Source: a virus. From it: a stretch of 45,237 bases of DNA. Below the pieces are notes generated by a model that was not told where the DNA came from, ran no database searches, and was given only the letters and a program-made list of their open reading frames with translations. The stretch lies in the IMG/VR virus record IMGVR_UViG_3300043172_000354; one strand, 5' to 3'. A program made the translations under genes and the position numbers. Shown here in pieces: positions 1 to 45,237 of the stretch (positions are counted from its first letter, which is position 1; each line of letters starts with the position of its first letter).

Positions 1-127
1 GTCGATCAGTGAGGTTTCGCCGGTCAACCAGTTCATCATTGAATTACGCTGGAAAGCATCGCCCACGTCTCGATCGAACTGCAAACTATCAAACCTTGCT
101 TTCATTTGTGGCGAAAGATCCCGAACG
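1..127. repeat. Terminal exact direct repeat, copy 1 (= 45111..45237); assembly circularisation overlap
   Basis: The first 127 bases (gtcgatcagtgaggtttcgcc...aagatcccgaacg) are reproduced exactly as the last 127 bases. The repeat lies inside a reading frame that continues across the junction. Confidence 0.95.
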
Positions 128-3100
128 GCTTGTATATCAGCCTTAGACGGAATGCCCCGGAACTCCGCCATGTACTTAGGATCAACATAAGAACTAATCA
201 AGAATTCAGATACCTGCTGTCTTGGTGCGATCTTGGCATTAAGGAATAACTTAGATTTTGCAAACCCGCCGAGCATCCGAGCAACTATATCGCTCAGTTC
301 GTCACCCTCAAATAACTGGCCCTCGATCCGCTCAATAAATTGTGTAATACGTTTTGCTTCTGCTGACCTGCCTTTATCTTCCATATCGACGATCACATCA
401 GGCGTATAAACGGCTTTTACTTCTCGCAGCGGTTCGGCCAGGCCAACGTACTTCGCAGAACTTATGCTTGAATTAAAGACGGTTTCAAAGAATCCAGCCA
501 ACTTTAGCGGATTAGATGTCCCAACTCGCTCCTTAAGCAAACCCATGCTTTCGACAAGCTGATTAGAACCGGCCAACTTTTTACCCTTCGGACCGCGAAC
601 AATCGACCGGCGAGCAGGCCAGTAATTCTCAACATTCGCAATGTCAATGAATTCGATCCTTGCGCTCACTTCGTTAATAGCCTCTTTATTATGCCCGTCC
701 ATCACCTTAGAACCAACCTGCCGGGCAACCTTTTTCTGCTGAGGTGTCAAGGTATCGATCATATTTTCAACTATCTCAACAGTGAAACCTCGCATTTTCT
801 CCTTAACGCCTTTGGTTACGCGATCCATTCCATCGTTGAGAAGAACGGCTAGGTTATGACTATTTCGCGTGTGCATAAATATTGACATTATTTCGTTTGA
901 CGTAAATTCAAAGGAGGCTGCCTTGCCGGAATTATCCTTAAGCGTGAAAGTGTGAACTTCTGGCTTTGGAGCGTGACCGAACGCCTTGCTTACCAGAGAA
1001 ATATCCTTCGGCCTCATAGACCAATTAAGTATATCCTTGCTGGTTACGCCATTATCTTTTTCGATTTCCCTCATTAAGTCCTTTGCGCCGTCAGCGTGCA
1101 GGACTTGATTATCGACCCCGGTATCAATAACATCGTAAACAAATTCAGTCATCGCTCGCTTAGATTCAGACCAAAGCTTATAAGTCCCCGGCCGTGCGCC
1201 GGAAACGGCATCGGAAACAGACTCAAGATTATCGTGTATGAGTTTGAATTTCTTAAGAACCTTTGAACTTGCCTCGCCGCCCAGGTTAGCCGGAATGGAC
1301 GGAGGAGCAGTAATCTCTCTTTTAATCGCTGATCTTCGCCGTATGGCCTCTTTTGCGTTCTCATCCTTCGCCGCGATGGTATCAGCCTCATTCTGGAATC
1401 TGAGAGCGATAAGCGTGTTCGTTATTTGGTCAAGTGATTCAATTGAAAGCTGATTGATAGCGAATGTCTTGGCTGTCATGCCGCTAAGTTCCGTAAGAAT
1501 CTGTTGTGCCTGGAACGCCGCGACCGAATCTTCTCGTGCGGTATCAAGTACCTGCTGCGCCATCGCCCGCATTTCAGCGTTTTTGAGCTCTGTTTCAGGT
1601 CTGATCTTGCCTAATTGCAAGCTGTCAAGAATGCTTTGAGCGGTTCCCGCAAACTCCGGCAACATCTTTTTCGGGTTGATTGCTTTGATTGCTACCTTGA
1701 GACGGTTGACTGCATCCCGCTTTTCAGCACGTAAAACGCCTTTTTCTACTGCAGCGGTAATCTTTTCAAGGTCCCTAGGGGACTTCGCTTCGGCAACACG
1801 CTTCAGGAAATCGCCCCGTTTATCCTTCTCGACGAATGTTTTAACTAGTTCAGACGCAGTTTTTCTTCTTGCATCTGTGAGATTTTGAGCTTGCTTGAGT
1901 TTGAGTATCTCGACTTTTGCCTTCTCGCGGGACTCCTTTTCGCCAGCCCGGAAACCAACAGCCTGACCTTCTTCTTGCGCTTCTCTTAGTTCTCTGGCTA
2001 CGTCTTTTTGTTCCTTGTTTGTTCTTAAGATTTCAGCAATTGTCTCGACCGGAACGCCAGTTGATTTATGCAACTTCTTGATACGACTCTTTAGTTGAGC
2101 GGCTGTTTCCTTTTTTGTTGTCGCGGCTTTTCTTTCCGCGCGAGTAAGTTTGCCCTTTTCGCCCGGTGCTCTTTTAGATAATCTTCCACGCGTTTCGACA
2201 TCTTCTTTAGTCTCCAATAATGGTTCAATTTCGATTTTATGTTCCTGCTCAATGCTTGCAGTTGCTTCGTTTATTTCGGCAACCGTGAATCCCTTATGGA
2301 ACATATCATGCCGCATAGCTGCTATTTCACTAAAAGGATCACCTGATGACATCATTTTGTGAAGGACAATCTGAGGTATGCCGCCGATTTTCTTTCTTGC
2401 GGCTTTTGTCTCTGATAACCTCTGAAGGAATGATGTTACATCCAGTTCGCCGCTAGTCTCTTCAACGCCAGTCTTATTCCGACCGAAACCCTCCATTACT
2501 ATTTGGTCAAATGGCGTACCCTCAGACCGCTTAAAGGTGATATGCTTCCTCAATGATGGATCACCTTCAAGATGTATCTTAACTTCACCCCTGAATTTCT
2601 CGGGTATAAACGCCTTGCCTAACTGAATCTCCTGGCTTTGTAATTCTATCGCTTCCGCTTCAGCCTGGAAAACAGGATCGTTACGAACAGCCTCGGTTAT
2701 CTGTTTCTTGGTTGCGGCGGTAGACTGAACATCGGCTTTTGCCGGTGCTTTGCGCTCAATAACCTCATCCGCTTCAAATCCCTCAAAGAAGTCATCGAAG
2801 TTGTCGTCTGATTTTATTGTTGCTGGCCTTGCTTCTTGGGCTTGGGCGGGCGAAGGCTGGACCACCAGAGTTGATATTATTTGGTCTGCCGAAAAGACTG
2901 CGTATTCAGTAGCCCCGTCAGTCTTGACTATAATGCCATCAAACCCATCTTCTTTAGCTTGGTCTATTTGCTCTCGCGTAGGCGACCTGTCAAGAATAAG
3001 TGGGTTTTCTATATTAAGCTTAGCAGGTCTAATATTGGAACTTTGAAACGTAAATGCCTTCGCTTCAATGCCTATCTCAGCCGCTTCTAGAATGAAATCG

Positions 3101-4767
3101 CTTTCATGCGCCCTACTGAATGTGGCCGCTATTTCTGGGTCATCTGAAAAGAATATAGCCCCTTCTGCGTTTATGTTTTCTGTGTTTTTACCGCTTTGTG
3201 TAATGTCGAACTCGTCGAAACCTTCCGGTGTGCCATGAAATACCGTCAATGGTTCGCCTTTTTCGTCAACTACCTTAGTTTTAGTTAGCTTTGGCTTTTC
3301 CTCTGCAATAGCTTCTGCGTTAACCTGCACTTCCCCCTCAACCTCAATAGACGGCTCGGGGGTTACTTCGACTGATGGGGCTTGCTCTGGGGCAACCTCT
3401 GGAGCTTCTTCGACAGCGATATCCTTCTTGACCGCATTCGCCACCTGTTTAATATTCTGAACCCCACGCCTAGTCAAGTCTACGCCAACACCCACACTTG
3501 CCGCACCGCCGCCCACAACACCGCCTACGAAGGCGTTCTCTGGCATAGCCGCCAATCCCGCCACTATCGCCTTCTTCGCAGCCAGCGACTTGTCAGTGCC
3601 CTTAGTGGTCTCTTTGCCAAAAACCTCTAAGAATGTCTGGTTGAACCCGGTTATTCCTTCTTGGGTTGCGTTCTCGGCGATGAGTGTTAATCCCCGCCGT
3701 ACTGATAAACCCTCTTTAAATCCCTTAATAATGCCCGGCAAGACAAGCATTTCACCACCGATCTCAGCAGCTTCGGATAGTTCGCCAATAATCAAAGATT
3801 TACGAACCGATCCACCAGCCTCTAATTGAGCCTGAAACGCAGCTCCACCCTCAGATTCACCAAGCATTGCAAGGCCAACCAGGGGATTGCCTGTCAATAA
3901 GCTGATTCCAACAGCAGCACCCATCGAAGGTACACCGCTTTGCACGGTAACTCGCATCAACTTGGTAATAGGAGCATTGCTCATAGTAGCAATATCTTGA
4001 GCAGCAGTAAGGTCTTTTTGTTTCCCGCGGAGTATCTTTGCTCCAATATCAGGCAGTCTCGTTACAAGGCCCATGGCCGCACCAGCAACAGAACCCGGCA
4101 AAGGCTTATCTGCCCGTAGGAAATCAATTCTATCAGGAGGAATAAGGAAGTTATTGCCGTCCAGAGGGTTTCTTAGACTGCCAGTAGCAGGGTCCATCTG
4201 AGGAGTTATAGCCTCAAATTGACTTCTCACAGCAGCATCAATATCCTCGCTAATTCCGCCACCGGCAAGCTGAATAGCTCTACGCTTTATTGCTTCGAGT
4301 GTAGAAGCTCCAAGTCCGATAGTTCCAATCTTCAAATTCAAAGGAGTTTCCCGTAAGGCTGTTTTGATGTCATCCCTAAGATTGCGATTAACAACAGACG
4401 CAGACATCTTTTCAAGAGACTCGCCATACAACTCCTTCGCTATACCGGGCGCCATGAATTGAGCATCGAATAAATCAATACCAAACAATTCGGACATAAA
4501 GAAACTATTCTCTATTTCCATTTTGAAATCTTCCGGGTCATCCAGAGTATTGATAAGCTCAGTTGCCATCTGACTTCTAATGGCAGGATGTTTCAGTTTA
4601 TCAGGGTTGTGGTATATGTCATCCATAACTTGCTTACGGAATTCAATTGAATCACTTACATCACCCCCAATAACCTCATCGTCAGAACCCCTGAAAGTGG
4701 GAGGCTCTTGAACGGCTACGGCTTGCTGATCTTCAATAATTTCATCGTCCGAAGTTCTAAAGGGCAT
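1..4767 (-). CDS. Giant internal virion/ejection polyvalent protein, N-terminal 1,589 codons (continues across the circular junction into 44271..45110; 1,868 aa in total)
   Basis: Absent from the ORF track because there is no stop inside the window. I split every line from 4767 down to 1 into triplets and found no tta/cta/tca in the frame p mod 3 = 0. The ATG at 4767..4765 overlaps the TAA of the upstream gene (TAATG). The frame matches ORF 44271..45215 after collapsing the overlap (45215-45110=105). It is the last and largest gene after the nozzle and two internal-protein genes, the T7 gp16 slot. Gly/Ala-rich hydrophobic stretches occupy aa ~223-430, and an ART-like motif block aa ~500-625. 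Confidence 0.9.
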   Translation of the reverse strand, partial: MPFRTSDDEIIEDQQAVAVQEPPTFRGSDDEVIGGDVSDSIEFRKQVMDDIYHNPDKLKHPAIRSQMATELINTLDDPEDFKMEIENSFFMSELFGIDLFDAQFMAPGIAKELYGESLEKMSASVVNRNLRDDIKTALRETPLNLKIGTIGLGASTLEAIKRRAIQLAGGGISEDIDAAVRSQFEAITPQMDPATGSLRNPLDGNNFLIPPDRIDFLRADKPLPGSVAGAAMGLVTRLPDIGAKILRGKQKDLTAAQDIATMSNAPITKLMRVTVQSGVPSMGAAVGISLLTGNPLVGLAMLGESEGGAAFQAQLEAGGSVRKSLIIGELSEAAEIGGEMLVLPGIIKGFKEGLSVRRGLTLIAENATQEGITGFNQTFLEVFGKETTKGTDKSLAAKKAIVAGLAAMPENAFVGGVVGGGAASVGVGVDLTRRGVQNIKQVANAVKKDIAVEEAPEVAPEQAPSVEVTPEPSIEVEGEVQVNAEAIAEEKPKLTKTKVVDEKGEPLTVFHGTPEGFDEFDITQSGKNTENINAEGAIFFSDDPEIAATFSRAHESDFILEAAEIGIEAKAFTFQSSNIRPAKLNIENPLILDRSPTREQIDQAKEDGFDGIIVKTDGATEYAVFSADQIISTLVVQPSPAQAQEARPATIKSDDNFDDFFEGFEADEVIERKAPAKADVQSTAATKKQITEAVRNDPVFQAEAEAIELQSQEIQLGKAFIPEKFRGEVKIHLEGDPSLRKHITFKRSEGTPFDQIVMEGFGRNKTGVEETSGELDVTSFLQRLSETKAARKKIGGIPQIVLHKMMSSGDPFSEIAAMRHDMFHKGFTVAEINEATASIEQEHKIEIEPLLETKEDVETRGRLSKRAPGEKGKLTRAERKAATTKKETAAQLKSRIKKLHKSTGVPVETIAEILRTNKEQKDVARELREAQEEGQAVGFRAGEKESREKAKVEILKLKQAQNLTDARRKTASELVKTFVEKDKRGDFLKRVAEAKSPRDLEKITAAVEKGVLRAEKRDAVNRLKVAIKAINPKKMLPEFAGTAQSILDSLQLGKIRPETELKNAEMRAMAQQVLDTAREDSVAAFQAQQILTELSGMTAKTFAINQLSIESLDQITNTLIALRFQNEADTIAAKDENAKEAIRRRSAIKREITAPPSIPANLGGEASSKVLKKFKLIHDNLESVSDAVSGARPGTYKLWSESKRAMTEFVYDVIDTGVDNQVLHADGAKDLMREIEKDNGVTSKDILNWSMRPKDISLVSKAFGHAPKPEVHTFTLKDNSGKAASFEFTSNEIMSIFMHTRNSHNLAVLLNDGMDRVTKGVKEKMRGFTVEIVENMIDTLTPQQKKVARQVGSKVMDGHNKEAINEVSARIEFIDIANVENYWPARRSIVRGPKGKKLAGSNQLVESMGLLKERVGTSNPLKLAGFFETVFNSSISSAKYVGLAEPLREVKAVYTPDVIVDMEDKGRSAEAKRITQFIERIEGQLFEGDELSDIVARMLGGFAKSKLFLNAKIAPRQQVSEFLISSYVDPKYMAEFRGIPSKADIQAVRDLSPQMKARFDSLQFDRDVGDAFQRNSMMNWLTGETSLID

Positions 4768-6674
4768 TATGGTTTCCTCACAATTTCACCGTCTGTGTCA
4801 ATATATAGTGTACCACTCGGAAAAGCATCGAAAGCAGCTTGATCTTTCGGCGTATTCTCTGGGACTTCGATTTTGTTTGTCTTAACGCCAGGTACGGAGT
4901 TTGCTCGGGCGATGTCAATAGCCTGCTGTGCAGTTCTGCCATCAATAATCGACTGAGCAACGGAATCCTTGCCCGCCTGAGACATGGCTTGGAATGTTTC
5001 GCTTTCTTCAGCAGTCTTAAATCGCTTCCTCGCTATGGCTTCTTCTTCTGTATCTAAAAGGAAGCCAGCTAAGCCAGGTCCGCCAGGAACAAACATTAAG
5101 GCTGCCCCAAGCTTACCCTCTTTTCGTCTTATGAATTTCTCAAGGAAACCAAGAGTAACGTCCTCGATTGCCGGTCTTGACAACGCACTAACTTGTTGCT
5201 GCCATTTACGGGTAAAATCAGGATCGTCAGCATTAGCATCAGCCCACTTGTCAAGTATTGTCTGATTACGTAAAAAGGCGATTCCGATGTCTGCCACGTT
5301 CTTAAGATAATCTCCGTCATCCCTATCGAGCACGCTGATTGCTGCCGACCGAACTCTGTCAAGAGAGGCTTGACCTCTTTTCACTTCGGGCCGCCCCAAT
5401 ACTGGGTTCTTTTTGACGTCCGCAGATTCAGCAGCGGTACTGATATTATCAAGGTTAGTTTTGCCCTCAGTAGCCTTTACGTCCTTAGATACCTTCTTAT
5501 ATTCAGAAATGGCTTCATCGTAAGACAACTCGCCGGATCTTGTTCGCCTGAGTATTCCATCAACCTGGATATTGGTTTCGTCAGAAGTTACAAAATTGGC
5601 CTTCTTGTTAGAATTATTAACCGATGATATATAGGAATTAGCGGATATAATTTGCTTATTCTTTTCAATTTCCGTAATTGGCTGTGCTTTTATAAAAGCG
5701 TGAATCCCATCGAATTCGCCATTATTAAGCTTTCCTTTGATCTCGTTAATCGAATTGTCCGTAACTTGCTGGGACTCCAATTCTGTTTCCGCTCGACTAT
5801 TTCTCACTTGGGTTTCTAGCGACGTCCTAGCCTTTTGTTTTTCTGGTTCCGGCAAGCCAGATGCGTTGATAATATCAATACCAACTTGTAACTTGCCGTC
5901 AGGGTCTTCTATATCAACCGTAGCTTGCCAAGCATCGAAACCAGCAGTTGTTACATTGCCTCGGATTATCCCTGCACGTTTGACATCAGCGTCGGCCTTC
6001 CATGACTCATATCCCGCCATCCTCACCTCGTCAGTGTCCAGCAAAGGATTTTCCCAATCCTCTATTAGCTGGATTTTCGGATTTCCTTTTTCATCTAATA
6101 CCGGTACTGGTTCTCCGTCCTTGTCTTCGGTGGCATACTCTAAGCCGAAATAGTCCATGCCATTTGCAAGCTCAAGCTGGTAATCGGATTCCTGTAACGC
6201 ACTGGCGGTTCTTCTGGTGGCTTCTTTTATTCCCAGGTTCCAATTTTGAGTATAATTTTGAACGTCCTGTGTTTGCTTGGCTCCGAACACACGCCTCGTT
6301 TGCGATAAATCCTCGTTTGCTTTCCATAATTCAAATTCGTTTGCAGCTCTTTTGTTGGTGAATTTGTACGAACTTGTCTGGCCAGCCTTTAGATTGGGAA
6401 TGTATGTTTCGGTATCAGCGTTGGTCTGTAAATCCTGCTCATAGTCGAAAAACTTTGTCAGGTATTCAGTCTTTGAAGAATTAAGCTGGTTATGAAATTC
6501 AGCCTTTTCTTTCTCCTGTATGAATGCTACGCCAAACTCAGTGAGTGCTTCGCCTGTTTTTGCAGCACTTCTATTTCCCTGCGTAGCTGCCTGAATGTCA
6601 GCGGACGAAAGCTGGCCCACACCACTGAGAGGAGCTAATCTTTGATTTCTATATTGTTGTGATATTTCGGGCAT
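4767..6674 (-). CDS. Internal virion (ejection/core) protein, 635 aa
   Basis: Long ORF between the small internal protein and the giant protein (T7 gp15-like slot). Its stop overlaps the next start (TAATG). The sequence is Q/E/K-rich and alpha-helical-looking with no enzymatic motif recognised. Confidence 0.6.
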   Translation of the reverse strand: MPEISQQYRNQRLAPLSGVGQLSSADIQAATQGNRSAAKTGEALTEFGVAFIQEKEKAEFHNQLNSSKTEYLTKFFDYEQDLQTNADTETYIPNLKAGQTSSYKFTNKRAANEFELWKANEDLSQTRRVFGAKQTQDVQNYTQNWNLGIKEATRRTASALQESDYQLELANGMDYFGLEYATEDKDGEPVPVLDEKGNPKIQLIEDWENPLLDTDEVRMAGYESWKADADVKRAGIIRGNVTTAGFDAWQATVDIEDPDGKLQVGIDIINASGLPEPEKQKARTSLETQVRNSRAETELESQQVTDNSINEIKGKLNNGEFDGIHAFIKAQPITEIEKNKQIISANSYISSVNNSNKKANFVTSDETNIQVDGILRRTRSGELSYDEAISEYKKVSKDVKATEGKTNLDNISTAAESADVKKNPVLGRPEVKRGQASLDRVRSAAISVLDRDDGDYLKNVADIGIAFLRNQTILDKWADANADDPDFTRKWQQQVSALSRPAIEDVTLGFLEKFIRRKEGKLGAALMFVPGGPGLAGFLLDTEEEAIARKRFKTAEESETFQAMSQAGKDSVAQSIIDGRTAQQAIDIARANSVPGVKTNKIEVPENTPKDQAAFDAFPSGTLYIDTDGEIVRKP

Positions 6675-6706: not shown

Positions 6707-7456
6707 TTATGCGAATACGCCTCCGCCTGGAATACTTGGTCTACCGGCATTAGTATTGAATAGCGAAGTAGAGATAAAACTTGGTTTTTTCTTGACTTTA
6801 AAAAGTAAACTCTGTAATGATTTCTTTTTGACCTGACTGACACTTCCGGCAACCTGACTACCGCTTCCGGCGACCGAACCTGGCGTCTTCGGACCGCCAA
6901 AGTTACTCAACAGGGCTATCGTTCCAATTCCCTTAGCAAGATCAGCGGCTCCTCTTACCCTTGCACTTCTCCTGGCAAGCTGGCCTTGATACTTCACTAA
7001 CGCTCCTTTATTCCTTAGTTCCGTAGCTTTTACACCATAGTTTCGGGATATTACCAAAGCATCAGCTTCAAACTCCCTTGAGGTGTTTGCCAGGATCGAC
7101 AAATTAGAACCTGTGAGTTGACCGCCGTTAGCTGCCATCTGTGCTATTTGCGAAGCTTGAGCACGTTTGGCCTGTTTGCGTTTCTCTCTGGATTCTTGCT
7201 GGCCGACTTCCTCAAATGACTCAGCCTGTGCGTCGATCTGCTGCTGTTGAATTTCGGCTAACCTGGCAGTTTCTTTGCCTTCTTTTAAGGTCTGGCTGTA
7301 AGATAGTGCTAAGCCTCCACCCGCAAGCGCAAGTGATACAGGGTCGAATCGCTTGAACGGGTGAACGAAGAATATTTGATTACCGCGAACAACCGCCTTT
7401 GCCCCATAAGGGATATGCCTATTCGGGCAAATCATTTTAAATAGTTCATTTTTCAT
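6707..7456 (-). CDS. Putative internal virion protein, 249 aa (T7 gp14-like slot)
   Basis: ORF directly after the GNAT gene with an 11-nt overlap. It has an A/Q/G-rich coiled region (AEIQQQQIDAQAESFEE...RAQASQIAQMAANGG) and a Gly/Ser/Lys-rich tail, typical of small podoviral ejection/pilot proteins. Confidence 0.5.
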   Translation of the reverse strand: MKNELFKMICPNRHIPYGAKAVVRGNQIFFVHPFKRFDPVSLALAGGGLALSYSQTLKEGKETARLAEIQQQQIDAQAESFEEVGQQESREKRKQAKRAQASQIAQMAANGGQLTGSNLSILANTSREFEADALVISRNYGVKATELRNKGALVKYQGQLARRSARVRGAADLAKGIGTIALLSNFGGPKTPGSVAGSGSQVAGSVSQVKKKSLQSLLFKVKKKPSFISTSLFNTNAGRPSIPGGGVFA

Positions 7457-7895
7457 TTGTTGTCCTTGAGAAAAGATATGCGTCGTCTCCGTTTGGTAAA
7501 TAACTTTTCATGCCTTTTGGTGTTTCATTTTTAAATCCAAAGAACTCTACAAATTTAATGCTTACTTTGTTGTTCACATTAACAGATGATTGAAACCTTT
7601 TTACGCCAAACCGTTCGCCTTGATCTTTCAGAAACCTTTTTACGCTTCTAATGGCTACAATATTCCTGTCGCTTCTGATTAAACTAAACCAGACCTCGCA
7701 AACACCAGGCCATAGAATAGTAGCACCGAAACACGCTATCGGTCCACCTTCGTCCTCAAGCACCCAAGCCGGACCTCTACCTTCGTCGAAATACTCATAG
7801 TAGACTTCCCTGAGCGATTCTTGCTCAAGCACCAGAGACGGTATATCCGATGCGGTCATCGGTCTTGTTATAGGTTTAGTTATTTCTTTAATCAC
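7446..7895 (-). CDS. GNAT-fold (acyl-CoA N-acyltransferase-like) protein in the virion module
   Basis: 149 aa. The segment ...GPIACFGATILWPGVCEVWFSLIR...RSVKRFLKDQGERFGVKRFQSSV..N.VSIKFVEFFGF resembles the GNAT core (beta4-alpha3-beta5). It overlaps the nozzle gene stop by 8 nt. Confidence 0.5.
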   Translation of the reverse strand: MIKEITKPITRPMTASDIPSLVLEQESLREVYYEYFDEGRGPAWVLEDEGGPIACFGATILWPGVCEVWFSLIRSDRNIVAIRSVKRFLKDQGERFGVKRFQSSVNVNNKVSIKFVEFFGFKNETPKGMKSYLPNGDDAYLFSRTTNEK

Positions 7896-10311
7896 CGCTA
7901 ACCTGCACTTTCGATTGAATCGCAGTTATATTGAACGGGAAAGGATCTTCCTGTACGAACTTGATCTGAACCTCGTCTGACCAACCGCCGTCAACCTCTA
8001 ATCGTATCAGTCCGGTATAAGGGTCATTTGAACCGTTGGTTGTATCGGGCCATTCCGAGAACATAATATCATACATCACAGGTTCGGTAAATTGTTCTTT
8101 TAATCCATATTGCCCGGTCATTGTCTTGTAGAAACAGGCGTCAATCTCATATACCTTTTTCTTGTACCCTATTGAAAACCCGTTTTGGGTTTGGACTTCT
8201 ATCGGAAAAGTCAAGAACGTAGATGTGTACGGAAGCCCGATTGTAGCACGATTTACTTTGAAGTTCCCCAAGTCAATTTCGCCATCCGTTACAGTTGCCT
8301 CAGTAGATAATGCCTCTGTGAGAGTATAGCCTGGATATACGCCAGAACCATACGCGCCGGACCCATACGGAACAGGGCTTGAAGTTAGCGTATATTCATT
8401 ACCCTCAGCTATCATCACTTGAACAGTCTCACCCTCTAAATGATCGAGCCCTGTTATTGTGTCAGTTAAAATACCAGAATAAGTTAAGCCCGAATCCACA
8501 AACCAAGCATCATCTGGATCGGTTCCCCAGTCCTGCGGCTGCATTTGCTCGATGTATCTAATATCGCCACCGGCTTTTGTTCGCTTTACTACAACCCAAA
8601 CCTGATCTTCGTCTGCTCCAGGTATAACGGCCACTGATTCAAACTCTCCATCAGTAATATGCCTTGCCCACCCAACCACACCCTCATTCCTGTTGTACGT
8701 CAACGATACAAGCTGGCCATCGCTCCTGACGAACCACACTATATCGTCAGGCCGATTTTGTACGGCTATGTCTATCAGACCGGGAGATGTTATATGTTCT
8801 GCCATGACAGTAAGCTCAGGAGAAACGAAACCGTCGCTCTGTAGGTCGTAGATCATATCCCGAACCTTACGCCGGTTACGGTCCACGAATACGATAGATT
8901 CACCGATTAGAGCCGGTTGCATATCAGCACTTCCGACATCGGCCTGCCTTTCTGCTCCGAAACTAGCCGGAGTTAATACAGACGTACTTGACTGGCTGGA
9001 AATCCTTATGGCAGATCCGCTTGTTCCTGCGATGATACCGTTTTTGTCCTGGAGCCATAGAATAGGATTTTGTTTCGTTGCGCTAATTTCTTCGTTAATC
9101 GCCCCATTATCTAAAGTTGATTCCCGCATACTCTCAAGGTCGAAAGATGTGCTTGTCCAGAAACCGTTTGGTTGGTAGGTTGTCCCTGCAAGACATAGCC
9201 TGTTTTGGTACATACAGATAGATCGCGGATAACCCCTGCGAGGACTCCAAGCGCCCTCAGCCCATTTAGTCGTTGCGGCCGTCCCAGCTAGTGTGCTCGT
9301 TACCGTCGCGGTTACGACCTTTGTACTGGTGTAAGCCGTTACCTCAACGTACCCGGAAACATCGGAGTTATAGGAGGTAAGAGTATAATCACAACTTCCA
9401 GCAGTCCGATCAGTCATTGTAACGCGGTATTCATAGCCTGCGTCGGGTTCGTTAAAGGAGTATTCGATATTGGCGGCATCGCCGTTAAGTTTGGGATATA
9501 CCGGCTCCCATGAACCAGCGTCAATAACGCTCTTTTCCAATGTCAGCAGACCGGTCCACGTTCCCTCTAATGTCAACAACCCATCGCCCTCTACGGCAAC
9601 GGTGGAGCTACTTGCATTTGTCGCGATATTACCCGACGTATAAGAGTTAGCTGATTTTTCGATTATCTTCCATAGAGAGCCAACATTGTCAGCGGTAAAG
9701 ATAGCAGACGAAGCAGTCAGGGTGATCGTGCCTGTAGTGGCCGATGGTGTTATGGTGGTTGTCGTGGTGTTCTGGTCAAGGAAAGGCCCCCACTCCCAAT
9801 CTACATCGGCGATCGTCCATTCGTCATGGTCGATCCTAATCAGCTTTTGGGGGGGATCGTCCGGGTGAACAATATACATTACGTCGTTTGACTGGACATA
9901 TTGTATTTCTGATATTTGGTCTTCGCCGTAAACTGTTGAGGTTGCATAAATATCATCATTGTCATCAAGGATTTGACCAGCAACTCCATTTACGCAACGG
10001 AAATACCAGATATTACTATCCGAAAACGACAAAACATAGGCATCATCCGTAGAACTTTCAAAAGAAACTAAATGAGAAACCCTATCGGCATCTGCTACAT
10101 AAATCGTCCCGGCTCTCCGCATTGCGGTTCCCTGTGGTTTGACGAGGAAATTCTCCATCGTCTCAACGCCCAGGTACTTCTTGTCGAGATCAACACGGTA
10201 TCGAAGCAATGGGCTTAGCTCCCCTGAGTTGAAAGCAGTATTCAGGGACGCAGAGAAACCAGTCAGACAAAGAATAGGTAACAGTAATATTAGTAGCAGT
10301 TTTTTAAGCAT
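7888..10311 (-). CDS. Tail nozzle / tail tubular protein B-like protein with an N-terminal signal-peptide-like extension
   Basis: 807 aa, close to T7 gp12 in size. The motif FNSGELSPLLRYRVDLDKKYLGVETMENF..KPQG...RRAGT resembles N-termini of podoviral nozzle-type proteins as I recall them. It is preceded by MLKKLLLILLLPILCLTGFSA. A GGAG lies 4 nt before the ATG. Confidence 0.6.
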   Translation of the reverse strand: MLKKLLLILLLPILCLTGFSASLNTAFNSGELSPLLRYRVDLDKKYLGVETMENFLVKPQGTAMRRAGTIYVADADRVSHLVSFESSTDDAYVLSFSDSNIWYFRCVNGVAGQILDDNDDIYATSTVYGEDQISEIQYVQSNDVMYIVHPDDPPQKLIRIDHDEWTIADVDWEWGPFLDQNTTTTTITPSATTGTITLTASSAIFTADNVGSLWKIIEKSANSYTSGNIATNASSSTVAVEGDGLLTLEGTWTGLLTLEKSVIDAGSWEPVYPKLNGDAANIEYSFNEPDAGYEYRVTMTDRTAGSCDYTLTSYNSDVSGYVEVTAYTSTKVVTATVTSTLAGTAATTKWAEGAWSPRRGYPRSICMYQNRLCLAGTTYQPNGFWTSTSFDLESMRESTLDNGAINEEISATKQNPILWLQDKNGIIAGTSGSAIRISSQSSTSVLTPASFGAERQADVGSADMQPALIGESIVFVDRNRRKVRDMIYDLQSDGFVSPELTVMAEHITSPGLIDIAVQNRPDDIVWFVRSDGQLVSLTYNRNEGVVGWARHITDGEFESVAVIPGADEDQVWVVVKRTKAGGDIRYIEQMQPQDWGTDPDDAWFVDSGLTYSGILTDTITGLDHLEGETVQVMIAEGNEYTLTSSPVPYGSGAYGSGVYPGYTLTEALSTEATVTDGEIDLGNFKVNRATIGLPYTSTFLTFPIEVQTQNGFSIGYKKKVYEIDACFYKTMTGQYGLKEQFTEPVMYDIMFSEWPDTTNGSNDPYTGLIRLEVDGGWSDEVQIKFVQEDPFPFNITAIQSKVQVSGD

Positions 10312-20412: not shown

Positions 20413-21183
20413 TCAGCCTACGACATTTCCACCATCATCGTACTCATAGCTTGGAAAGCCGCCTTCTTCTTTTGTGCTTGATTCACCGAAAACAGTCTTG
20501 CCCTCGTTTACAAGCGGAGCAATCTCGGCTAACAGATTTCTAATCACTGGGTTATTGCCGAGTCCATAATTATCGAGAAGGGTTTTAACTTCCGCCCCGC
20601 CCTTGAACTTCGACAGAGCTTCATCAGTTCCCGTGATAAAGCTATCGTATTTCTCTTTGTGCAGTTCCTTCATGCCAGCAACATCGGCTTCTATGAGAGC
20701 TAGGCCCTTATCCTCTAAGCCTTTGAACTGACCCTGCATAGTTTCAACAACACTGGTCCAGATTTTCTCAACTACACCAGCGGGTGCACCAGAGGCTAAA
20801 GCTGCTTCTTTAACTACCGCTGCAATACCAGTAAAACTATCCTTGTCGTCACCATCTGGAATATCCATTGCGTAACCGTCTGCGGAATCAGGGACACCAA
20901 TAGCCTTGCGGTATGCCTTGATAGCGTCTTCGCTGGCATCTTCACCGGGGATCGTGACCATTCCCTTAGCTCGTTCTGCGAATTTCTCGTCAAAAGCTGC
21001 ATCGCCCTTGGTGATATGGCGCTGAGCACTGACATAGTTCTTCAACAGTGTTGCTTGATCATTCACGTTCTCGAACATTTTAGTCGGCTCTGAGTTCGTT
21101 CCAGGGTCATTATAGTAATCATCGCCAAGGTGTTCTTTCACGGTTTCAAGGTTAATCACGCCATCTGTAAATAAATCATTCAT
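20413..21183 (-). CDS. Scaffolding protein
   Basis: 256 aa, acidic and helical, located between the portal region and the capsid gene (T7 gp9 slot). Confidence 0.6.
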   Translation of the reverse strand: MNDLFTDGVINLETVKEHLGDDYYNDPGTNSEPTKMFENVNDQATLLKNYVSAQRHITKGDAAFDEKFAERAKGMVTIPGEDASEDAIKAYRKAIGVPDSADGYAMDIPDGDDKDSFTGIAAVVKEAALASGAPAGVVEKIWTSVVETMQGQFKGLEDKGLALIEADVAGMKELHKEKYDSFITGTDEALSKFKGGAEVKTLLDNYGLGNNPVIRNLLAEIAPLVNEGKTVFGESSTKEEGGFPSYEYDDGGNVVG

Positions 21184-21452
21184 CTTCGTTTGCCCTTTAA
21201 TAGTCTTTTAATCAATGTTTTCAATTTGCCGGGCCTTACAACAGGCCCATGAATAGTATTCAATAACTGCTTTGCGTAATTGCATAAAGCCTGCTGTTCA
21301 GGTGTTTCGCATTCACGCAGGAAATACAGGTCTGATAGTATATCTTCAAGAACAGCCTTGCCGTATTCGCCTGTAAACACGGCAAGGTATATTCTTTGAC
21401 GTTCCTGATCGTCTGCTTCTACATCTTCAATTGGTTCAAGTCCATTAAGCAT
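21180..21452 (-). CDS. Small conserved capsid-module protein (Bbp19-like, tentative)
   Basis: 90 aa. RIYLAVFTGEYGKAVLEDILSDLYF resembles the Bbp19-like phage domain as I remember it. It overlaps the scaffold start by ATGA. Confidence 0.4.
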   Translation of the reverse strand: MLNGLEPIEDVEADDQERQRIYLAVFTGEYGKAVLEDILSDLYFLRECETPEQQALCNYAKQLLNTIHGPVVRPGKLKTLIKRLLKGKRR

Positions 21453-21681
21453 TTAAAGTCTTCTTGTAGTCTAATGGCCATTTACTTTTGTCACCGAGTT
21501 TCTTTAGAGCCTCAAGTTCAACAGCCTTTTCTTCGGCCATTCTTTTTGCTGCGGCCTGTGCCGCTTCAAACCTTGGGGCATCTGCTGTTACAACAGCAGC
21601 CTCGGTGATCGTACGGGCATCAGATTCAGCCGCCCACCTTGACTCACGTTCTGCATCGGATAGTGCAATTTCGGAAGGCAT
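21445..21681 (-). CDS. Hypothetical protein
   Basis: 78-aa ORF in operon orientation, coupled by overlaps on both sides. Confidence 0.45.
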   Translation of the reverse strand: MPSEIALSDAERESRWAAESDARTITEAAVVTADAPRFEAAQAAAKRMAEEKAVELEALKKLGDKSKWPLDYKKTLNA

Positions 21682-21950
21682 TATTCTTTCGACGCCTCGA
21701 TCAATTTACCTAGTTCAATTACGACCTGCTCCAGTTCAAAGATACGCTTTTCGTGGTCGTTGATCGTGCCAACGCCCATTGTAACCTCTGGAGCCTGTGC
21801 TACCGGTGCTTCATCTGTCTCAGTTTCCGGTTCTTCCTGTGCATCAGTAGTATCATCGAGCAACGCCTGAAGCTCTTTGTTTGTCATCTCGTCATCGTAT
21901 CCAACATTCAATGAACCGAGTTCTGCTTTGAGCTGTTCTTTGTTAGCCAT
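21681..21950 (-). CDS. Hypothetical highly acidic protein
   Basis: 89 aa. DDTTDAQEEPETETDEAPVAQAPE is flanked by helical segments. Confidence 0.45.
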   Translation of the reverse strand: MANKEQLKAELGSLNVGYDDEMTNKELQALLDDTTDAQEEPETETDEAPVAQAPEVTMGVGTINDHEKRIFELEQVVIELGKLIEASKE

Positions 21951-21968
21951 CTTTCTAGCCTTTCAAAA

Positions 21969-22229
21969 TTAAATTATTAGTTTACTTTCAGGGAGTGTCA
22001 ATATAACGCCCTGTTCTTCGACTTCAACTTCAACAACTGATAAGTGTATAGAGTTACCAGTTTGCTTCATATCTATTCGGACACCTTTGTTAAGGGCGGC
22101 CACTTCTTCCAATTCAACAACCGCACTGCCACCTAATTTCCTGAGCAAGCATATAACCATCTGGCTTGCCGATAGCTGCAAAGTCTTCGGTTTTGCGCCT
22201 GAATGCTTGTTTCTTTTGAGTGTTACCAT
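21969..22229 (-). CDS. Hypothetical protein
   Basis: 86-aa ORF in operon orientation. Confidence 0.4.
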   Translation of the reverse strand: MVTLKRNKHSGAKPKTLQLSASQMVICLLRKLGGSAVVELEEVAALNKGVRIDMKQTGNSIHLSVVEVEVEEQGVILTLPESKLII

Positions 22230-22238
22230 GTTATTCTT

Positions 22239-22469
22239 TCATGATTCTTTAAATTCTCTCACCACAAGCTCTCTACCGTCCTCAAGGACAATAGAACCAT
22301 CTATTTGCCCGTGACCACAACAACTAGCCTCTGTTGTAATATTCGCAGCATTCAACGCCGCAACAATATCAGCAATACATAAATCAATATCACATCTACG
22401 TCCATTGATTGCCATTGGAACTTGGCACTCATACGTCCCCATATCGCAACATTTACTTGGTTTTTCCAT
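22239..22469 (-). CDS. Hypothetical Cys-rich (probable metal-binding) protein
   Basis: 76 aa with CC..C...C.....C....SCCGHG. Confidence 0.45.
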   Translation of the reverse strand: MEKPSKCCDMGTYECQVPMAINGRRCDIDLCIADIVAALNAANITTEASCCGHGQIDGSIVLEDGRELVVREFKES

Positions 22470-22475
22470 AAATCA

Positions 22476-22709
22476 CTATCCCTCTCTGATTACATTCATA
22501 TCGCGTATGCACCCTTTAGGGATTGTCATTCTTCCGACCACTTCGTCCGCGCTATCAGATTGAAGGATCGTAACGTAATCCTCTCTATCTTCCAATAAGT
22601 ACCCCACTGAGTTAATATGAACGGGCTTTAGTTGTTCTAATTCGTCCTTAGGTTCCCACCCAGAAGTCACGCCCTTGCTGTCATTCCATATTACTTCTAC
22701 AATTTTCAT
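22476..22709 (-). CDS. Hypothetical protein
   Basis: 77-aa ORF immediately downstream of the portal gene. Confidence 0.45.
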   Translation of the reverse strand: MKIVEVIWNDSKGVTSGWEPKDELEQLKPVHINSVGYLLEDREDYVTILQSDSADEVVGRMTIPKGCIRDMNVIREG

Positions 22710-28197: not shown

Positions 28198-28410
28198 ATG
28201 AAAACTGATGCACAACGCAAGCATGAATCATTTCTTTCTGTTAAGAACATGCACTTAGACGGGAAAGATCCTCATATTATTAAAGGTCGTATCGGCTTTA
28301 CTTATGCTGGTGCTTTTGCTGTTTGGTCTGTCTTAAAAAATGGGATCTGGACTGCATGTAGTCACAAGCCTAAAACAACAGAAACCCGAACCACAATGGA
28401 ACTAGTCTAA
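28198..28410 (+). CDS. Hypothetical early protein
   Basis: 70 aa, preceded by AAGGAACTGGA + 3 nt + ATG. Confidence 0.5.
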   Translation: MKTDAQRKHESFLSVKNMHLDGKDPHIIKGRIGFTYAGAFAVWSVLKNGIWTACSHKPKTTETRTTMELV

Positions 28411-28482
28411 AATGCTTAAGGCCGGGCCGGTCACACGGTCTGAGCTTAAATATTTTATTACTTTAATGAAGGAACTGGAAAA

Positions 28483-29832
28483 ATGACACAGAAACAGAAA
28501 GAACGAAATCAGGATTTGCGGAATAAATGGAATCACGCAAAACAGCTGCTTAATGATAAGGCTATCAGTGAGATCGAAGCAATCATGCACACCCACGGCC
28601 TCAACTTTTCGCCTACTGGCTATAAGATCGTCGCTATGGAAATGGCACAACAAAAGCTTGAAGGCATTCCATACGTAGATGCAAAGACTTATAAGGGCTG
28701 GTTGGAAAATGGTTTCCAGGTTCGTAAGGGCGAAAAATCAACACTTGGATCGATTACTTGGGTTGGCGTTGGCAAGAAAGAGCCGACACCAGCAAAGCCA
28801 GAAGGCAAATCAGGCTTTTTGTTCCCTAAGAGTTATAACCTTTTCCATCGGTCTCAGGTTGACGCGGTAGGATCACCCACTGACAAACCAACTAAATCAC
28901 CAGAAAAGCGTGTTTATGCTGAGAAAAAGCAATCAAACGCTAAATTCCTATCTATGGCCAATACTTTAACGGCTCAAATTGAAAATAAGATGCGGCCAAT
29001 GACACAAAATCCAACTCCAAAGCGTAATCGCGAATATGCAAGCCGTCTTTGGGAGGGTGGCAACTTGCAAAGGCTTCAAAAGCTTTTACTTGCTATGGCC
29101 GATCGCATTGACAATGACACGCTGCCCGCTGAACTGGCAGGAATAACCAAGAGATCAGACCTTGCAAAACTGGTTTATAAATCCACTAATTCAAGTGATG
29201 GATATTATTCTTGTACCGTTGCCGATGCTTACTCTTATGGCACGCCTGAAGCTTTATCAGCCCAAAAGCTTATTGAAGGCAACCCCGAAGAAGAACGCAA
29301 GCAGCAGGAATTGAACGAAATAAACCAGATGAAGCAATCTTTGTTGTTGCAGAAAATCGATGATTTCTTTCCTACTCCTGATATTATCATTGAAAGAATG
29401 GTTGATCTCGCTGGTATCGAAGAAAACGAATCTGTTTTAGAGCCCAGCGCCGGAATGGGCAACATGTTGGAGTTTTTGCCCGATCGAACTATTGCAGTTG
29501 AACAAAATTTCAGTCTTTTTACATACTTAAAGCGGGTTCGCCCGGATCATACCGTCCTGCAGGATGACTTTTTAGCCCTGAACGGTAATCTTGGTAAGTT
29601 TGACAAAATCGTTATGAATCCGCCATTTAGCAGGGGCGCAGACATAAAGCACATCAAACACGCTTTAGCCCATTTAAACGAAGGTGGCAAACTTGTTGCT
29701 TTATGTGCTAACGGTCCCCGCCAGGCTAAAGAGTTAATGCCCTTGGCTGATCTTTGGGAAGACTTGCCAGCAGGTAGCTTTAAAGAAGCAGGAACCGGCG
29801 TAAATGTTGCATTGCTGGTTATCCAAAACTAA
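28483..29832 (+). CDS. ArdC-N-like ssDNA-binding domain fused to an N6-adenine-type SAM-dependent DNA methyltransferase
   Basis: N-terminal: YVDAKTYKGWLENGFQVRKGEKSTLGSITWV resembles the ArdC N-domain (..tf.qW...G..VrKGEK). C-terminal: VLEPSAGMGNM (motif I) and IVMNPPF (motif IV). Confidence 0.7.
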   Translation: MTQKQKERNQDLRNKWNHAKQLLNDKAISEIEAIMHTHGLNFSPTGYKIVAMEMAQQKLEGIPYVDAKTYKGWLENGFQVRKGEKSTLGSITWVGVGKKEPTPAKPEGKSGFLFPKSYNLFHRSQVDAVGSPTDKPTKSPEKRVYAEKKQSNAKFLSMANTLTAQIENKMRPMTQNPTPKRNREYASRLWEGGNLQRLQKLLLAMADRIDNDTLPAELAGITKRSDLAKLVYKSTNSSDGYYSCTVADAYSYGTPEALSAQKLIEGNPEEERKQQELNEINQMKQSLLLQKIDDFFPTPDIIIERMVDLAGIEENESVLEPSAGMGNMLEFLPDRTIAVEQNFSLFTYLKRVRPDHTVLQDDFLALNGNLGKFDKIVMNPPFSRGADIKHIKHALAHLNEGGKLVALCANGPRQAKELMPLADLWEDLPAGSFKEAGTGVNVALLVIQN

Positions 29833-29843
29833 ACCAGTTCCAG

Positions 29844-29885
29844 GCCCTCCCCTTTCCTGCGTAGGGATCGGGCGGGGGCTTTTTA
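29844..29885 (+). terminator. Probable rho-independent terminator
   Basis: gccctcccc ... gggcgggggc forms a stem with one mismatch and one G-U pair, followed by TTTTT. Confidence 0.5.
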
Positions 29886-29907
29886 TTACTTTTTAAGGAC
29901 ACGAAAA

Positions 29908-30162
29908 ATGATCAAATTCCAAGCAATACGACTTCACAACGGTAGACCGGTAGCAACTAGGGTCGATGGCAAAAAGAAACTTGCGACATTTAAATGTCTT
30001 GCGAGTGAGTTTTTACTTGTCGCTGGCAGCCTGAAACCTCGATTTGAAACAATTGAATGCGAGATAATCGGCGTACCGCTGCAAATCCCCACCAATGGCG
30101 CAATCAAAATCCGCCCCCGCCAATTGTTCACTCGGTTCTTTGATTTCTATGAGGTGAAATAG
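29908..30162 (+). CDS. Hypothetical protein
   Basis: 84-aa ORF with AAGGA upstream. Confidence 0.45.
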   Translation: MIKFQAIRLHNGRPVATRVDGKKKLATFKCLASEFLLVAGSLKPRFETIECEIIGVPLQIPTNGAIKIRPRQLFTRFFDFYEVK

Positions 30163-30575
30163 TGAAACCACTGAAAGCCATAAAATCATTCTTTTCCGGA
30201 CTTCTCGCTACAGTTTCCCCGAAGAACTTCGCCGATTGTGGCGTAAAGGTTAAGCGGCCTACTGGAAAGTTTTTATCCTGCACGCCTCATTGTGCGTATT
30301 GCCAAAAGGTATTCGCTTGGAGCAAGGGTGGCATGGAGGGTATTTTGCCTGAAACGACCGCATTAGTCATGGAGCATGTATCACATTGCCCGGCAAATCC
30401 TCTCGTACAGAAGCTTGACGCCGCTGCTGAAGCTCTCAGGCGGATTGAGTGCTTGACGCATGAGACGGCAAATCTCAGAGACCTCGAAGTAGTGTCCCAC
30501 AAAGACGAAATAATGCTTTCGGTAGCTACGCACAAAATCGCTCAAGAAGCTTGGCGGGCAACTCAGGAAAACTAA
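30162..30575 (+). CDS. Hypothetical Cys/His-rich protein
   Basis: 137 aa with a GTG start overlapping the previous stop. Motif C..HC..C ... HVSHC. Confidence 0.4.
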   Translation: MKPLKAIKSFFSGLLATVSPKNFADCGVKVKRPTGKFLSCTPHCAYCQKVFAWSKGGMEGILPETTALVMEHVSHCPANPLVQKLDAAAEALRRIECLTHETANLRDLEVVSHKDEIMLSVATHKIAQEAWRATQEN

Positions 30576-30619
30576 AATTAACTAAATTAGTATGAAATCA
30601 GTATTTGAAAGGTTGAACA

Positions 30620-32635: not shown

Positions 32636-32645
32636 TCATAACTTG

Positions 32646-32695
32646 GCCCGGCTGTTGGACTATCATACGCCGACAGTTTGACAGTTGGGCTTTTT
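32646..32695 (+). terminator. Rho-independent terminator
   Basis: gcccggctgt / acagttgggc forms a 10-bp stem (two G-U pairs), followed by TTTTT. Confidence 0.55.
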
Positions 32696-32718
32696 AATAA
32701 ATTTATGGAGATATACAA

Positions 32719-32898
32719 ATGGAAATTCATGACCTAATAAAAGATTTCAAAGATACTGAAATTAAGATGATTAGAGCAAAGCTGAAACTTGAGGGTGCTG
32801 TTAGAAAGCATAAGGCTGCTTGCAAGGCCGTAATACGTTGCAGTGACGCCTCTAAGGGCTTTAAGAAAGTAGCTCGTAATGTCATGGAACAACAGTAA
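32719..32898 (+). CDS. Small hypothetical protein (59 aa, below the track cutoff)
   Basis: ATG at 32719 with GGAG 8 nt upstream. The frame is open to TAA at 32896-32898 and fills the gap before recT. Confidence 0.4.
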   Translation: MEIHDLIKDFKDTEIKMIRAKLKLEGAVRKHKAACKAVIRCSDASKGFKKVARNVMEQQ

Positions 32899-32931
32899 CC
32901 CTAAATACTTATAGATAAAGGAAGTAGCGAA

Positions 32932-33843: not shown

Positions 33844-33883
33844 TAAATAAATCAATTTTAATCATTTTTTGAAAGGGAAGTAA

Positions 33884-35240: not shown

Positions 35241-35242
35241 AA

Positions 35243-35488
35243 ATGCACATACTTTACGAAAAGAAAGTCAGGATAGGATTTTTTACGATACTGTTAATCG
35301 CCGCTTTGCTCATGGGTATTTATTCATGCTGGCCTGAAGCTCCAAAGCCGTCAGGGGTTGTGTTGGTTCCGGTTATAGAGCAGCAACGCGAACTCAACAG
35401 GCGAGGGCATAACATCAAAGAAGATGGTATATTTGGTAAGAATACCGACCTGGCATTGACAATTGAGCTTTCAAAGGAGCGTAAATAA
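35243..35488 (+). CDS. Membrane-anchored protein with peptidoglycan-binding-like motif
   Basis: TM segment IGFFTILLIAALLMGIY. QQRELNRRGHNIKEDGIFGKNTDLAL resembles PG_binding_1. Confidence 0.45.
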   Translation: MHILYEKKVRIGFFTILLIAALLMGIYSCWPEAPKPSGVVLVPVIEQQRELNRRGHNIKEDGIFGKNTDLALTIELSKERK

Positions 35489-38184: not shown

Positions 38185-38230
38185 TTAAATTAGAAGTTGC
38201 AATTTGATAAACAGAGGTTATATTTTAAGC

Positions 38231-38326: not shown

Positions 38327-38357
38327 AAGGGCTGCCGCCTTTTTTTTGAGGACTACC

Positions 38358-39224: not shown

Positions 39225-39231
39225 TGTTTTG

Positions 39232-40568: not shown

Positions 40569-40598
40569 CTAACTAACAAAATTTAACGGAGAAAAACT

Positions 40599-41117: not shown

Positions 41118-41120
41118 AAT

Positions 41121-42307: not shown

Positions 42308-42337
42308 CCGTTAATTGAAATGTAAAAAGGATTTGAA

Positions 42338-44270: not shown

Positions 44271-45237
44271 TTAAAATTTAGGTGCTTTCTTCTTTTTGTC
44301 GTCAGTTTTGGTTTGCGCTATGACTGTTTGAGCAATATCCTTCGCCCCGTAATAAGGCAAGCCCTTGAGTGATGCGATCGCATTGGCCATACTATCAATT
44401 GCAACAAATAATTCTGTTTTCCATTTCAATTTACCTTTATTCGGACCACTCTTATATTTTTCCTCAGTTACGAAATGCTTGCCGGCCAAAGCGAAACCAC
44501 CTATTCCGTCAAGTAGTATATCCTTCAATATCCCCTCAATTGTGCCATCCTGAAAACCACTTTGTCCGAATGTTGGCTTGTCGGCGAAGATATTGAAGTA
44601 ATACCCAAATGCCTCAGCGAACCACCCTCCAAAGAACGGTAACGACAATACATCTTTCACGGCGTCCCTCATGGCATCGGCTACGTCCTTATGCCGCTTC
44701 TTGATCAGAACTGCCCATGCCAGATTATAGGCGGTAAAGGCCGCGAGGTTCATAGCAACGCTGCCCAGGATACGACCGAGCCTTAATGCGTCTTCGTTGG
44801 TCTTCTTACTGTTAACATAATCAGATACGCCATTATTGACCATTCTCACTAATTGCTCACGTTGCGACATGAACATTGTCAGGGACCTAGTTAACGGACT
44901 GAGACTACTGCCGAGCAATGACCTGTCTTTTACATTCCACACAGGCTGCGTATGGCGAACTACCCACTCAAAGCGGTCTTTGAGTAGAGCTTGCCCCGCT
45001 TCGCTGTCTATAGCTACGTCTGGGTTGTTGTCGACAACCTCAGCCTTTGTTGCTCTGTAAAGGTCAACAATAGCATTTGTGTCAAAGAATTTCATCCCAA
45101 GTGCAGTATGGTCGATCAGTGAGGTTTCGCCGGTCAACCAGTTCATCATTGAATTACGCTGGAAAGCATCGCCCACGTCTCGATCGAACTGCAAACTATC
45201 AAACCTTGCTTTCATTTGTGGCGAAAGATCCCGAACG
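44271..45237 (-). CDS. Giant internal virion/ejection polyvalent protein, C-terminal part (unique part 44271..45110, 279 aa + stop)
   Basis: The track ORF 44271..45215 begins at an internal Met. The frame stays open to the window edge and joins 1..4767 in phase through the 127-bp overlap. The C-terminus is lysine-rich (KTDDKKKKAPKF). Confidence 0.9.
   Translation of the reverse strand, partial: VRDLSPQMKARFDSLQFDRDVGDAFQRNSMMNWLTGETSLIDHTALGMKFFDTNAIVDLYRATKAEVVDNNPDVAIDSEAGQALLKDRFEWVVRHTQPVWNVKDRSLLGSSLSPLTRSLTMFMSQREQLVRMVNNGVSDYVNSKKTNEDALRLGRILGSVAMNLAAFTAYNLAWAVLIKKRHKDVADAMRDAVKDVLSLPFFGGWFAEAFGYYFNIFADKPTFGQSGFQDGTIEGILKDILLDGIGGFALAGKHFVTEEKYKSGPNKGKLKWKTELFVAIDSMANAIASLKGLPYYGAKDIAQTVIAQTKTDDKKKKAPKF
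45111..45237. repeat. Terminal exact direct repeat, copy 2 (= 1..127)
   Basis: Identical to bases 1-127 by direct comparison. Confidence 0.95.

Follow-up and report, generated by a model that had tools for sequence, protein, structure and literature searches.

An ART-PolyVal domain in the largest protein of the structural gene cluster of a T7-like podovirus genome

The IMG/VR virus record IMGVR_UViG_3300043172_000354 is a stretch of 45,237 nucleotides, hereafter called the window. Within a very large minus-strand gene, it encodes one copy of an ADP-ribosyltransferase (ART) domain of the ART-PolyVal family, belonging to the H-aromatic-D clade and kin to the diphtheria-toxin/PARP-type ARTs. The Pfam profile PF18760 (ART-PolyVal) matches residues 501-632 of the product (window 2872..3267, minus strand) with 56.5 bits and an E-value (E) of 6.6e-15, over profile positions 1-132 of 140 and well above its gathering cut-off of 31.2 bits. 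Both the family and the accession given in a first-pass annotation of the window are thus borne out by a significant ART profile hit. The peptide quoted in that annotation, KVVDEKGEPLTVFHGT...IFFSD...EDGFDGIIVKTDGATEYAVFSADQI, was confirmed as residues 498-632 on the minus strand (window 3276..2872); the locus first reported, 2872-3275, has a start coordinate that is off by one base.

A word-indexed search with the ART domain alone gave one match and was replaced by an exhaustive search of 1.84 billion cluster representatives with a four-sequence profile (A1), which retrieved 25,273 representatives at E<=1e-3 and 10,237 at E<=1e-10. Many of these are giant multi-copy proteins, and those ranking highest carry the domain up to 18 times. 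Conservation was evaluated by aligning to the query 466 full-length domain copies, drawn from the 149 best proteins. Nine of the 12 most conserved positions (>90%) are kept in the query, namely H511 (98% of copies), G512 (93%), G504 (96%), P506 (97%), P589 (93%), G608 (92%), D610 (98%), G611 (93%) and Q629 (96%); the query also retains T513 (83%), F540 (78%), F625 (91%) and S632 (85%).

The active site described for ART-PolyVal consists of a His in strand 1, a Tyr in strand 2 and an Asp in strand 5, and the family is grouped with Tox-ART-HYD2 (Iyer et al. 2017, PMC5512222). Residue by residue, the query agrees with this description, except for a Phe at the strand-2 Tyr position. The predicted catalytic residues are H511, in strand 1 and motif F-H-G-T (codon at 3235..3237, minus strand); F539, in strand 2 (3151..3153, minus strand); and D610, at the start of strand 5 in motif G-F-D-G (2938..2940, minus strand), which is the predicted catalytic acid. 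A Phe at position 539 is a normal family variant, because the family has Y in 36%, F in 34% and W in 11% of the copies. The catalytic acid had previously been placed at E621, as part of an H-Y/S-E or R-S-E triad; this has to be abandoned, because E occurs there in only 26% of the copies and the conserved acid is D610, in the G-x-D-G motif. Likewise, the motif aromatic-x-[AV]-F-x-P-x-Q-I-K-S, which had been read as part of the catalytic signature, is real and corresponds to a structural strand, not to a catalytic element. With H511 in strand 1 and D610 as the conserved acid, the domain does not have an Arg-Ser-Glu active site. Enzymatic activity is predicted at the level of the family.

The AlphaFold2 model of residues 495-636, the folded unit (window 2860-3285), was obtained from a 41-sequence alignment (A3) and has a predicted local distance difference test score (pLDDT) of 89.9 and a predicted template modelling score (pTM) of 0.81. 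In this model H511 lies in the strand formed by residues 508-513, F539 in the strand of residues 538-541, and D610 directly before the strand of residues 611-615. The top 50 Foldseek matches in the PDB were all PARP-type ART catalytic domains, from tankyrase 1, tankyrase 2 and PARP4 (E 5e-4 to 2e-3, probability ~1.0, query TM score 0.5-0.58). In BFVD, the best matches were phage proteins annotated as ART-PolyVal (best E 1.6e-10, TM score 0.74), including proteins from crAss-like phages, an N4-like virion RNA polymerase and a MuF fusion. Together, AlphaFold2 and Foldseek indicate that the predicted fold is the ART fold, as first proposed.

Against PDB sequences, the full protein and its profiles gave nothing significant, and the search with the domain profile gave only sub-threshold matches (E ~1), to exotoxin A and cholix toxin. 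This sub-threshold alignment places Y-H-G-T and G-F-Y...A..Y-A opposite H440, Y470 and Y481 of exotoxin A, with F539 opposite Y470; the stacking aromatics in the query would therefore be F539 and F550. Thus, the domain resembles diphtheria toxin, exotoxin A and PARP in that PARP/tankyrase catalytic domains are its best structural matches in the PDB, but it differs from the H-Y-E toxins in that its acid is an Asp in G-x-D-G instead of the toxins' Glu, in its much smaller size (~140 amino acids, aa) and in the non-significant sequence similarity.

The open reading frame (ORF) containing the domain starts at an ATG at window position 4767, on the minus strand, and runs off position 1. The two ends of the window are an exact 127-bp direct repeat (1-127 = 45111-45237), so that the sequence closes into a circle of 45,110 bp, the 127 bp being an assembly overlap. 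The gene therefore continues at 45110..44271, for a full product of 1868 aa. Its first 1589 codons (1..4767, minus strand) are identical to the JGI protein P0001, whereas the last 279 codons and the stop codon (44271..45110, minus strand) are reached across the circular junction. The minus-strand gene first annotated thus stands, with its product extended from ~1589 to 1868 aa because the gene wraps around the window ends. The same 1868-aa protein is recorded as P0001 in the JGI metagenome 3300043219 (contig Ga0484908_000016, 45,237 bp), where it has the same precomputed match to PF18760. The start codon (ATG, 4767-4765) and the TAA stop codon of the gene upstream overlap in TAATG, and a GAGGAA ribosome-binding site lies 8 nt upstream. 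Recent horizontal acquisition of the ART segment was considered and rejected, as there is no compositional anomaly (GC content of 0.436 for the segment and 0.447 for the genome). The window contains neither tRNAs nor Rfam matches.

The gene closes a minus-strand structural arm of podovirus type, which encodes a small and a large terminase, portal, protease/scaffold, major capsid protein, tail tubular A-like and fibre-/spike-like proteins. These are followed by a tail tubular B-like protein, a 149-aa GNAT-like protein, a 249-aa gp14-like protein, a 635-aa protein and the 1868-aa protein. This gene order is that of T7 genes 12-13-14-15-16 and is also found in the contig of a relative (L004). It is anchored by the 807-aa product similar to T7 tail tubular protein B (gp12), at 7888..10311 on the minus strand (phrog_376, E 1e-177). 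Next to it, in the T7 gene-13 slot, lies the gene for the 149-aa GNAT-like acetyltransferase (7446-7895, minus strand; phrog_4177, E 3e-9; Acetyltransf_1, 20.1 bits vs a cut-off of 20.7). A GNAT family typically neighbours ART-PolyVal in polyvalent proteins (Iyer et al. 2017, PMC5512222), and this protein may be a second packaged enzyme. The 249-aa product, similar to the T7 gp14 internal virion protein, is encoded at 6707..7456 (minus strand; phrog_418, E 9.4e-18; Pfam T7_gp14, E 6e-4, below cut-off), and the 635-aa gene, in the T7 gene-15 position immediately upstream of the ART gene (4767..6674, minus strand), had no family match. The portal protein is only ~25% identical to that of any cultured phage, those of Pelagibacter podophages being the closest.

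As the last gene of the structural arm, after the tail tubular and gp14-like genes, the ART gene has the genomic context of a virion-packaged protein, and from gene order and size it is reasonable to propose a putative ejection role for the 1868-aa protein. Like T7 gp16, it is the product of the last and largest gene of a gp14-gp15-gp16-type cluster that follows the tail tubular genes, and is a large, mostly helical protein with one enzymatic module. Unlike gp16, to which it shows no detectable sequence homology, its enzymatic module is central instead of N-terminal, and is an ART instead of a transglycosylase. The term ejection protein, used in the first-pass annotation, is therefore backed by the T7-like order and the size, but not by homology to gp16. 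The additional claim that the ART replaces the lytic transglycosylase of T7 gp16 is not supported as an evolutionary statement: apart from the lack of homology, the ART lies at residues 498-636, behind an N-terminal region of 450 residues. No Pfam domain for a lytic transglycosylase or peptidoglycan hydrolase was found in the 1868-aa protein. In all, that annotation was essentially right about ART-PolyVal, while its catalytic residue and its gp16 analogy are corrected here.

Homology mapping separates at least four modules in the 1868-aa protein, and only the ART is recognised by Pfam. The conserved N-terminal module comprises residues 128-450 (~60-470 by BLAST; window 3418..4386, minus strand), shows 40-71% identity with 32 relatives (P0002-P0033) and is modelled as all-helical (pLDDT 75.6). 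It includes a hydrophobic, Gly/Ala-rich segment at residues 273-303 (3859..3951, minus strand; Kyte-Doolittle peak of 1.65), which is a candidate membrane-inserting helix. This is one of three hydrophobic segments in the protein, the others being a Gly-rich one at residues 400-432 (3472..3570, minus strand) and a helix-like one near the C-terminus, at residues 1707-1725 (44703..44759, minus strand). The ART domain forms a unit of its own, flanked by two acidic, proline-rich linkers: a Pro/Ala/Glu-rich one on its N-terminal side (residues 451-497; 3277..3417, minus strand) and a Pro-rich one on its C-terminal side (residues 637-687; 2707..2859, minus strand). It is followed by a module at residues 688-853 (2209..2706, minus strand), with no Pfam match, which is common to P0007, P0008, P0018-P0020, P0022, P0023, P0025 and P0026, and by a C-terminal module at residues 922-1868 (1..2004 plus 44274-45110, minus strand), with 53-66% identity to P0002-P0007. 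In P0002, this last module matches phrog_28077, a PHROG family of unknown function.

In a collection of 5.8 billion clusters, 35 proteins matched the query: the protein itself, the 32 relatives sharing the N-terminal module, and two with only the ART and C-terminal parts. BLAST mapping divides the query into four parts, these being the N-terminal module, a variable segment at residues ~470-690, the module at residues 688-853 and the C-terminal module at residues ~922-1868. The six relatives sharing the C-terminal module differ from the query in the sequence of the variable segment. A clear ART-like domain occurs in this segment in P0001 itself, in P0029 (Pfam E 8e-6) and in the IMG/VR locus L006 (custom profile E 5e-9), with marginal ART-like domains in P0005, P0009, P0013, P0016 and P0024. 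The HExxH motif appears inside the variable segment in P0003 and P0018, and further downstream in six more relatives. Full-length relatives also match LPD38, a methyltransferase with DUF7699, and DarB-like and endolysin-like PHROG families, these matches being to the proteins as a whole and not to mapped positions within them. The segment after the N-terminal module behaves like a variable cargo region, differing from one relative to the next. A ParB-like reading of this segment in P0002, made by eye, was discarded, as it had no Pfam support even at E<=1.

Three of the weakly ART-like relatives, P0009, P0013 and P0016, have an Arg at the position of the strand-1 His (V-F-F-R-G, V-V-R-G-S and V-F-R-G-S, within residues ~450-800) and keep G-x-D-[GS]. 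Read by eye and with marginal scores, this may mean that the type of active site has changed inside a single cargo region.

The lineage is rare, with four IMG/VR loci and one GTDB contig. A tblastn search with the 1589-aa fragment against 50,697 phage records gave no match at E 1e-5, and therefore no cultured phage in that set carries the protein. Among 185,579 species genomes, the sole match to the N-terminal module was L005 (JBDKSR010000321.1), a 49.8-kb contig in a Bryobacteraceae metagenome-assembled genome (MAG). L005 probably comes from a phage and was binned into an Acidobacteriota MAG; as to the host range of the lineage it offers a faint hint, too weak for naming a host.

Taken together, we consider it probable that the last T7-like internal-virion gene of this uncultured, short-tailed phage carries an ART-PolyVal domain that is delivered with the DNA and ADP-ribosylates a host macromolecule. 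The 1868-aa protein would be packaged into the capsid core and leave it through the tail as infection begins, with the helical, hydrophobic N- and C-terminal modules presumably acting as the conserved carrier or channel part. Once in the cytoplasm, the ART domain would use host nicotinamide adenine dinucleotide (NAD+) to ADP-ribosylate a host macromolecule before phage gene expression, in the manner of T4 Alt. Candidate targets would be the transcription machinery, the translation machinery or a defence protein. Despite the T7-like structural module, none of the ORFs scanned was recognised as an RNA or DNA polymerase; the phage would therefore depend on host transcription, which makes the host RNA polymerase a plausible target, although as speculation. 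No macro, ARH or NADAR domain, which might indicate an ADP-ribose-processing partner, was found in the 38 ORFs scanned with Pfam.

In T4, a myovirus, Alt is a head protein in its own right, present in ~40 copies and belonging to the R-S-E clade; by contrast, the domain described here is of the H-aromatic-D type and is one module of a giant podovirus protein, probably present in few copies. The proposed logic is shared, in that a capsid-carried ART is delivered with the DNA and modifies host proteins at time zero (PMC5512222). The prototype of ART-PolyVal is in the virion RNA polymerase of Roseovarius Plymouth podovirus 1, and polyvalent proteins are defined as large polypeptides, encoded by phages or conjugative elements, that each combine at least two domains with disparate biochemical activities (Iyer et al. 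2017, PMC5512222). Such proteins are predicted to enter the cell with the DNA, and the protein-modifying domains that they carry most often are ARTs of this family (PMC5512222; PMC9503650). An enzyme delivered along with the DNA, as the first-pass annotation suggested, is the published model for the family (PMC5512222). ARTs have been reported in only ~3% of short-tailed and long non-contractile-tailed phages (PMC9503650). In common with ART-PolyVal, the query has the triad's His and Asp, the motifs G-x-D-G and Q-I-x-S and the fold, and it lies in a very large phage protein whose gene is among late structural ones. It differs in that the carrier is a helical, unannotated protein in the T7 gene-16 position, and not an N4-type RNA polymerase or MuF protein, and has a single ART copy, no zincin peptidase or other recognised partner, and a Phe for the strand-2 Tyr.

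Several observations weigh against a delivered and active ART. Homology to T7 gp16 was undetectable by hhalign with a 28-member profile of the relatives (probability 0.2%), and BLASTP of the 635-aa protein against T7 gp15 gave nothing, so the virion location and the ejection of the protein are deduced solely from synteny. The model of the N-terminal module had no solved relative, with no Foldseek match in the PDB better than E 2.7. NAD+ is cytoplasmic, and the ART of the ejected protein would have to reach the cytoplasm to use it. Pfam recognised no second domain besides the ART in the 1868-aa protein, and no HExxH peptidase motif was found in P0001; the carrier therefore fits the polyvalent-protein concept only loosely, and there is no obvious route for release of the ART. 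It fits the gp16 family by position only. Finally, within the domain both nicotinamide-stacking positions, F539 and F550, are Phe, although F is frequent there (34% and 27%, respectively); position 583 is K, vs Y in 72% of the copies, and position 631 is I, vs K in 86%; and searchable literature yielded no biochemical characterisation of any ART-PolyVal member.

These last features also speak for an ART fold that no longer transfers ADP-ribose, being instead a structural or NAD+/nucleotide-binding spacer, or a plain NAD+ glycohydrolase. The family-profile score of the query, 116 bits, is below that of typical copies (142-156 for P0034 and P0035) and points in the same direction. We nevertheless consider this unlikely: H511, D610 and the glycine frames are intact, a Phe could still stack on nicotinamide, and NAD+ depletion by a glycohydrolase would hurt the phage's own replication.

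An active ART might instead ADP-ribosylate nucleic acid, either that of the host (DNA or RNA) or the entering phage DNA, which it would protect in cis. DarT and the cis-acting polyvalent enzymes of the DarB type offer the analogy. The H-Y-[E/D] ARTs include the DNA- or RNA-directed DarT, KptA and some PARPs (PMC9503650), the domain would travel beside the DNA, and relatives match DarB-like antirestriction and DNA methyltransferase PHROG families. However, the sequence has no features that tell protein from nucleic-acid targets, Pfam detected no nucleic-acid-binding domain beside the ART, and the authors who described the family predict protein targets (PMC5512222), which makes this quite improbable. 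Least likely of all is that the large protein is not ejected but is a tail, tape-measure-like or assembly protein whose ART acts late in the producing cell, or never: it shows no homology to any proven ejection protein and one relative weakly matches a tape-measure PHROG family, but structural modules of the podovirus type do without a tape measure, the gene order fits the T7 core genes, with the gp14-like gene two genes upstream, and the size, the helical hydrophobic modules and the variable enzymatic insert fit ejected polyvalent proteins (PMC5512222).

Beyond delivery of an active ART, the comparison of relatives allows a bolder proposal, tentative and rather unlikely at present, by which the largest core protein of this rare T7-like podovirus lineage would be a modular delivery platform, composed of a conserved helical N-terminal carrier and hot-swappable cargo that in some relatives includes fast-diverging ARTs, among them the forms in which Arg takes the place of the strand-1 His. 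If so, the ART in the window would be one allele of an arms-race cassette directed against host defence, and not a housekeeping takeover enzyme, and its target could be one for which ADP-ribosylation is not yet known, either a defence protein or nucleic acid.

Injected, ART-bearing polyvalent effectors were already published in 2017, and the N4-like virion RNA polymerases are earlier podovirus cases, so that the conceptual gain is modest. What the locus offers is a clean, single-copy example of ART-PolyVal in a defined slot, gene 16 of a T7-like core cluster. The compact domain of 140 residues, with a confident model and H511 and D610 as candidate catalytic residues, is a convenient construct for first assays of activity and target, and the related proteins supply natural cargo-swap comparisons.

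The remainder of the genome includes a plus-strand replication/recombination arm (28400-43000), with SbcC-like, RecT, HD, SF2 helicase, DnaC/IstB-like ATPase, C5 cytosine methyltransferase and RecU proteins. The first gene of this arm (28483-29832, plus strand) encodes a 449-aa protein with a weak match to ArdC-N and an N6-methyltransferase-like C-terminal half; its best PHROG matches are internal stretches of giant families (1.2-3.9 thousand aa), and we read it as anti-restriction domains of the polyvalent-protein type present as a stand-alone gene. Further along, the ORF at 34332-35240 (plus strand) encodes a metallo-beta-lactamase-fold protein with a weak, sub-threshold match to Apyc1, an anti-Pycsar nuclease (25.9 bits vs a cut-off of 50). 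Because this ORF and the HD-domain ORF before it (33884-34534) overlap by ~200 nt, the start codon of one or the other has probably been miscalled. In the structural arm, an apparent gene gap of 1.5 kb at 21.2-22.7 kb proved to be occupied by small minus-strand ORFs, six in number (76-90 aa; 21180-22709), which lie between the scaffold/protease and portal genes, an unusual spot in a T7-like module.

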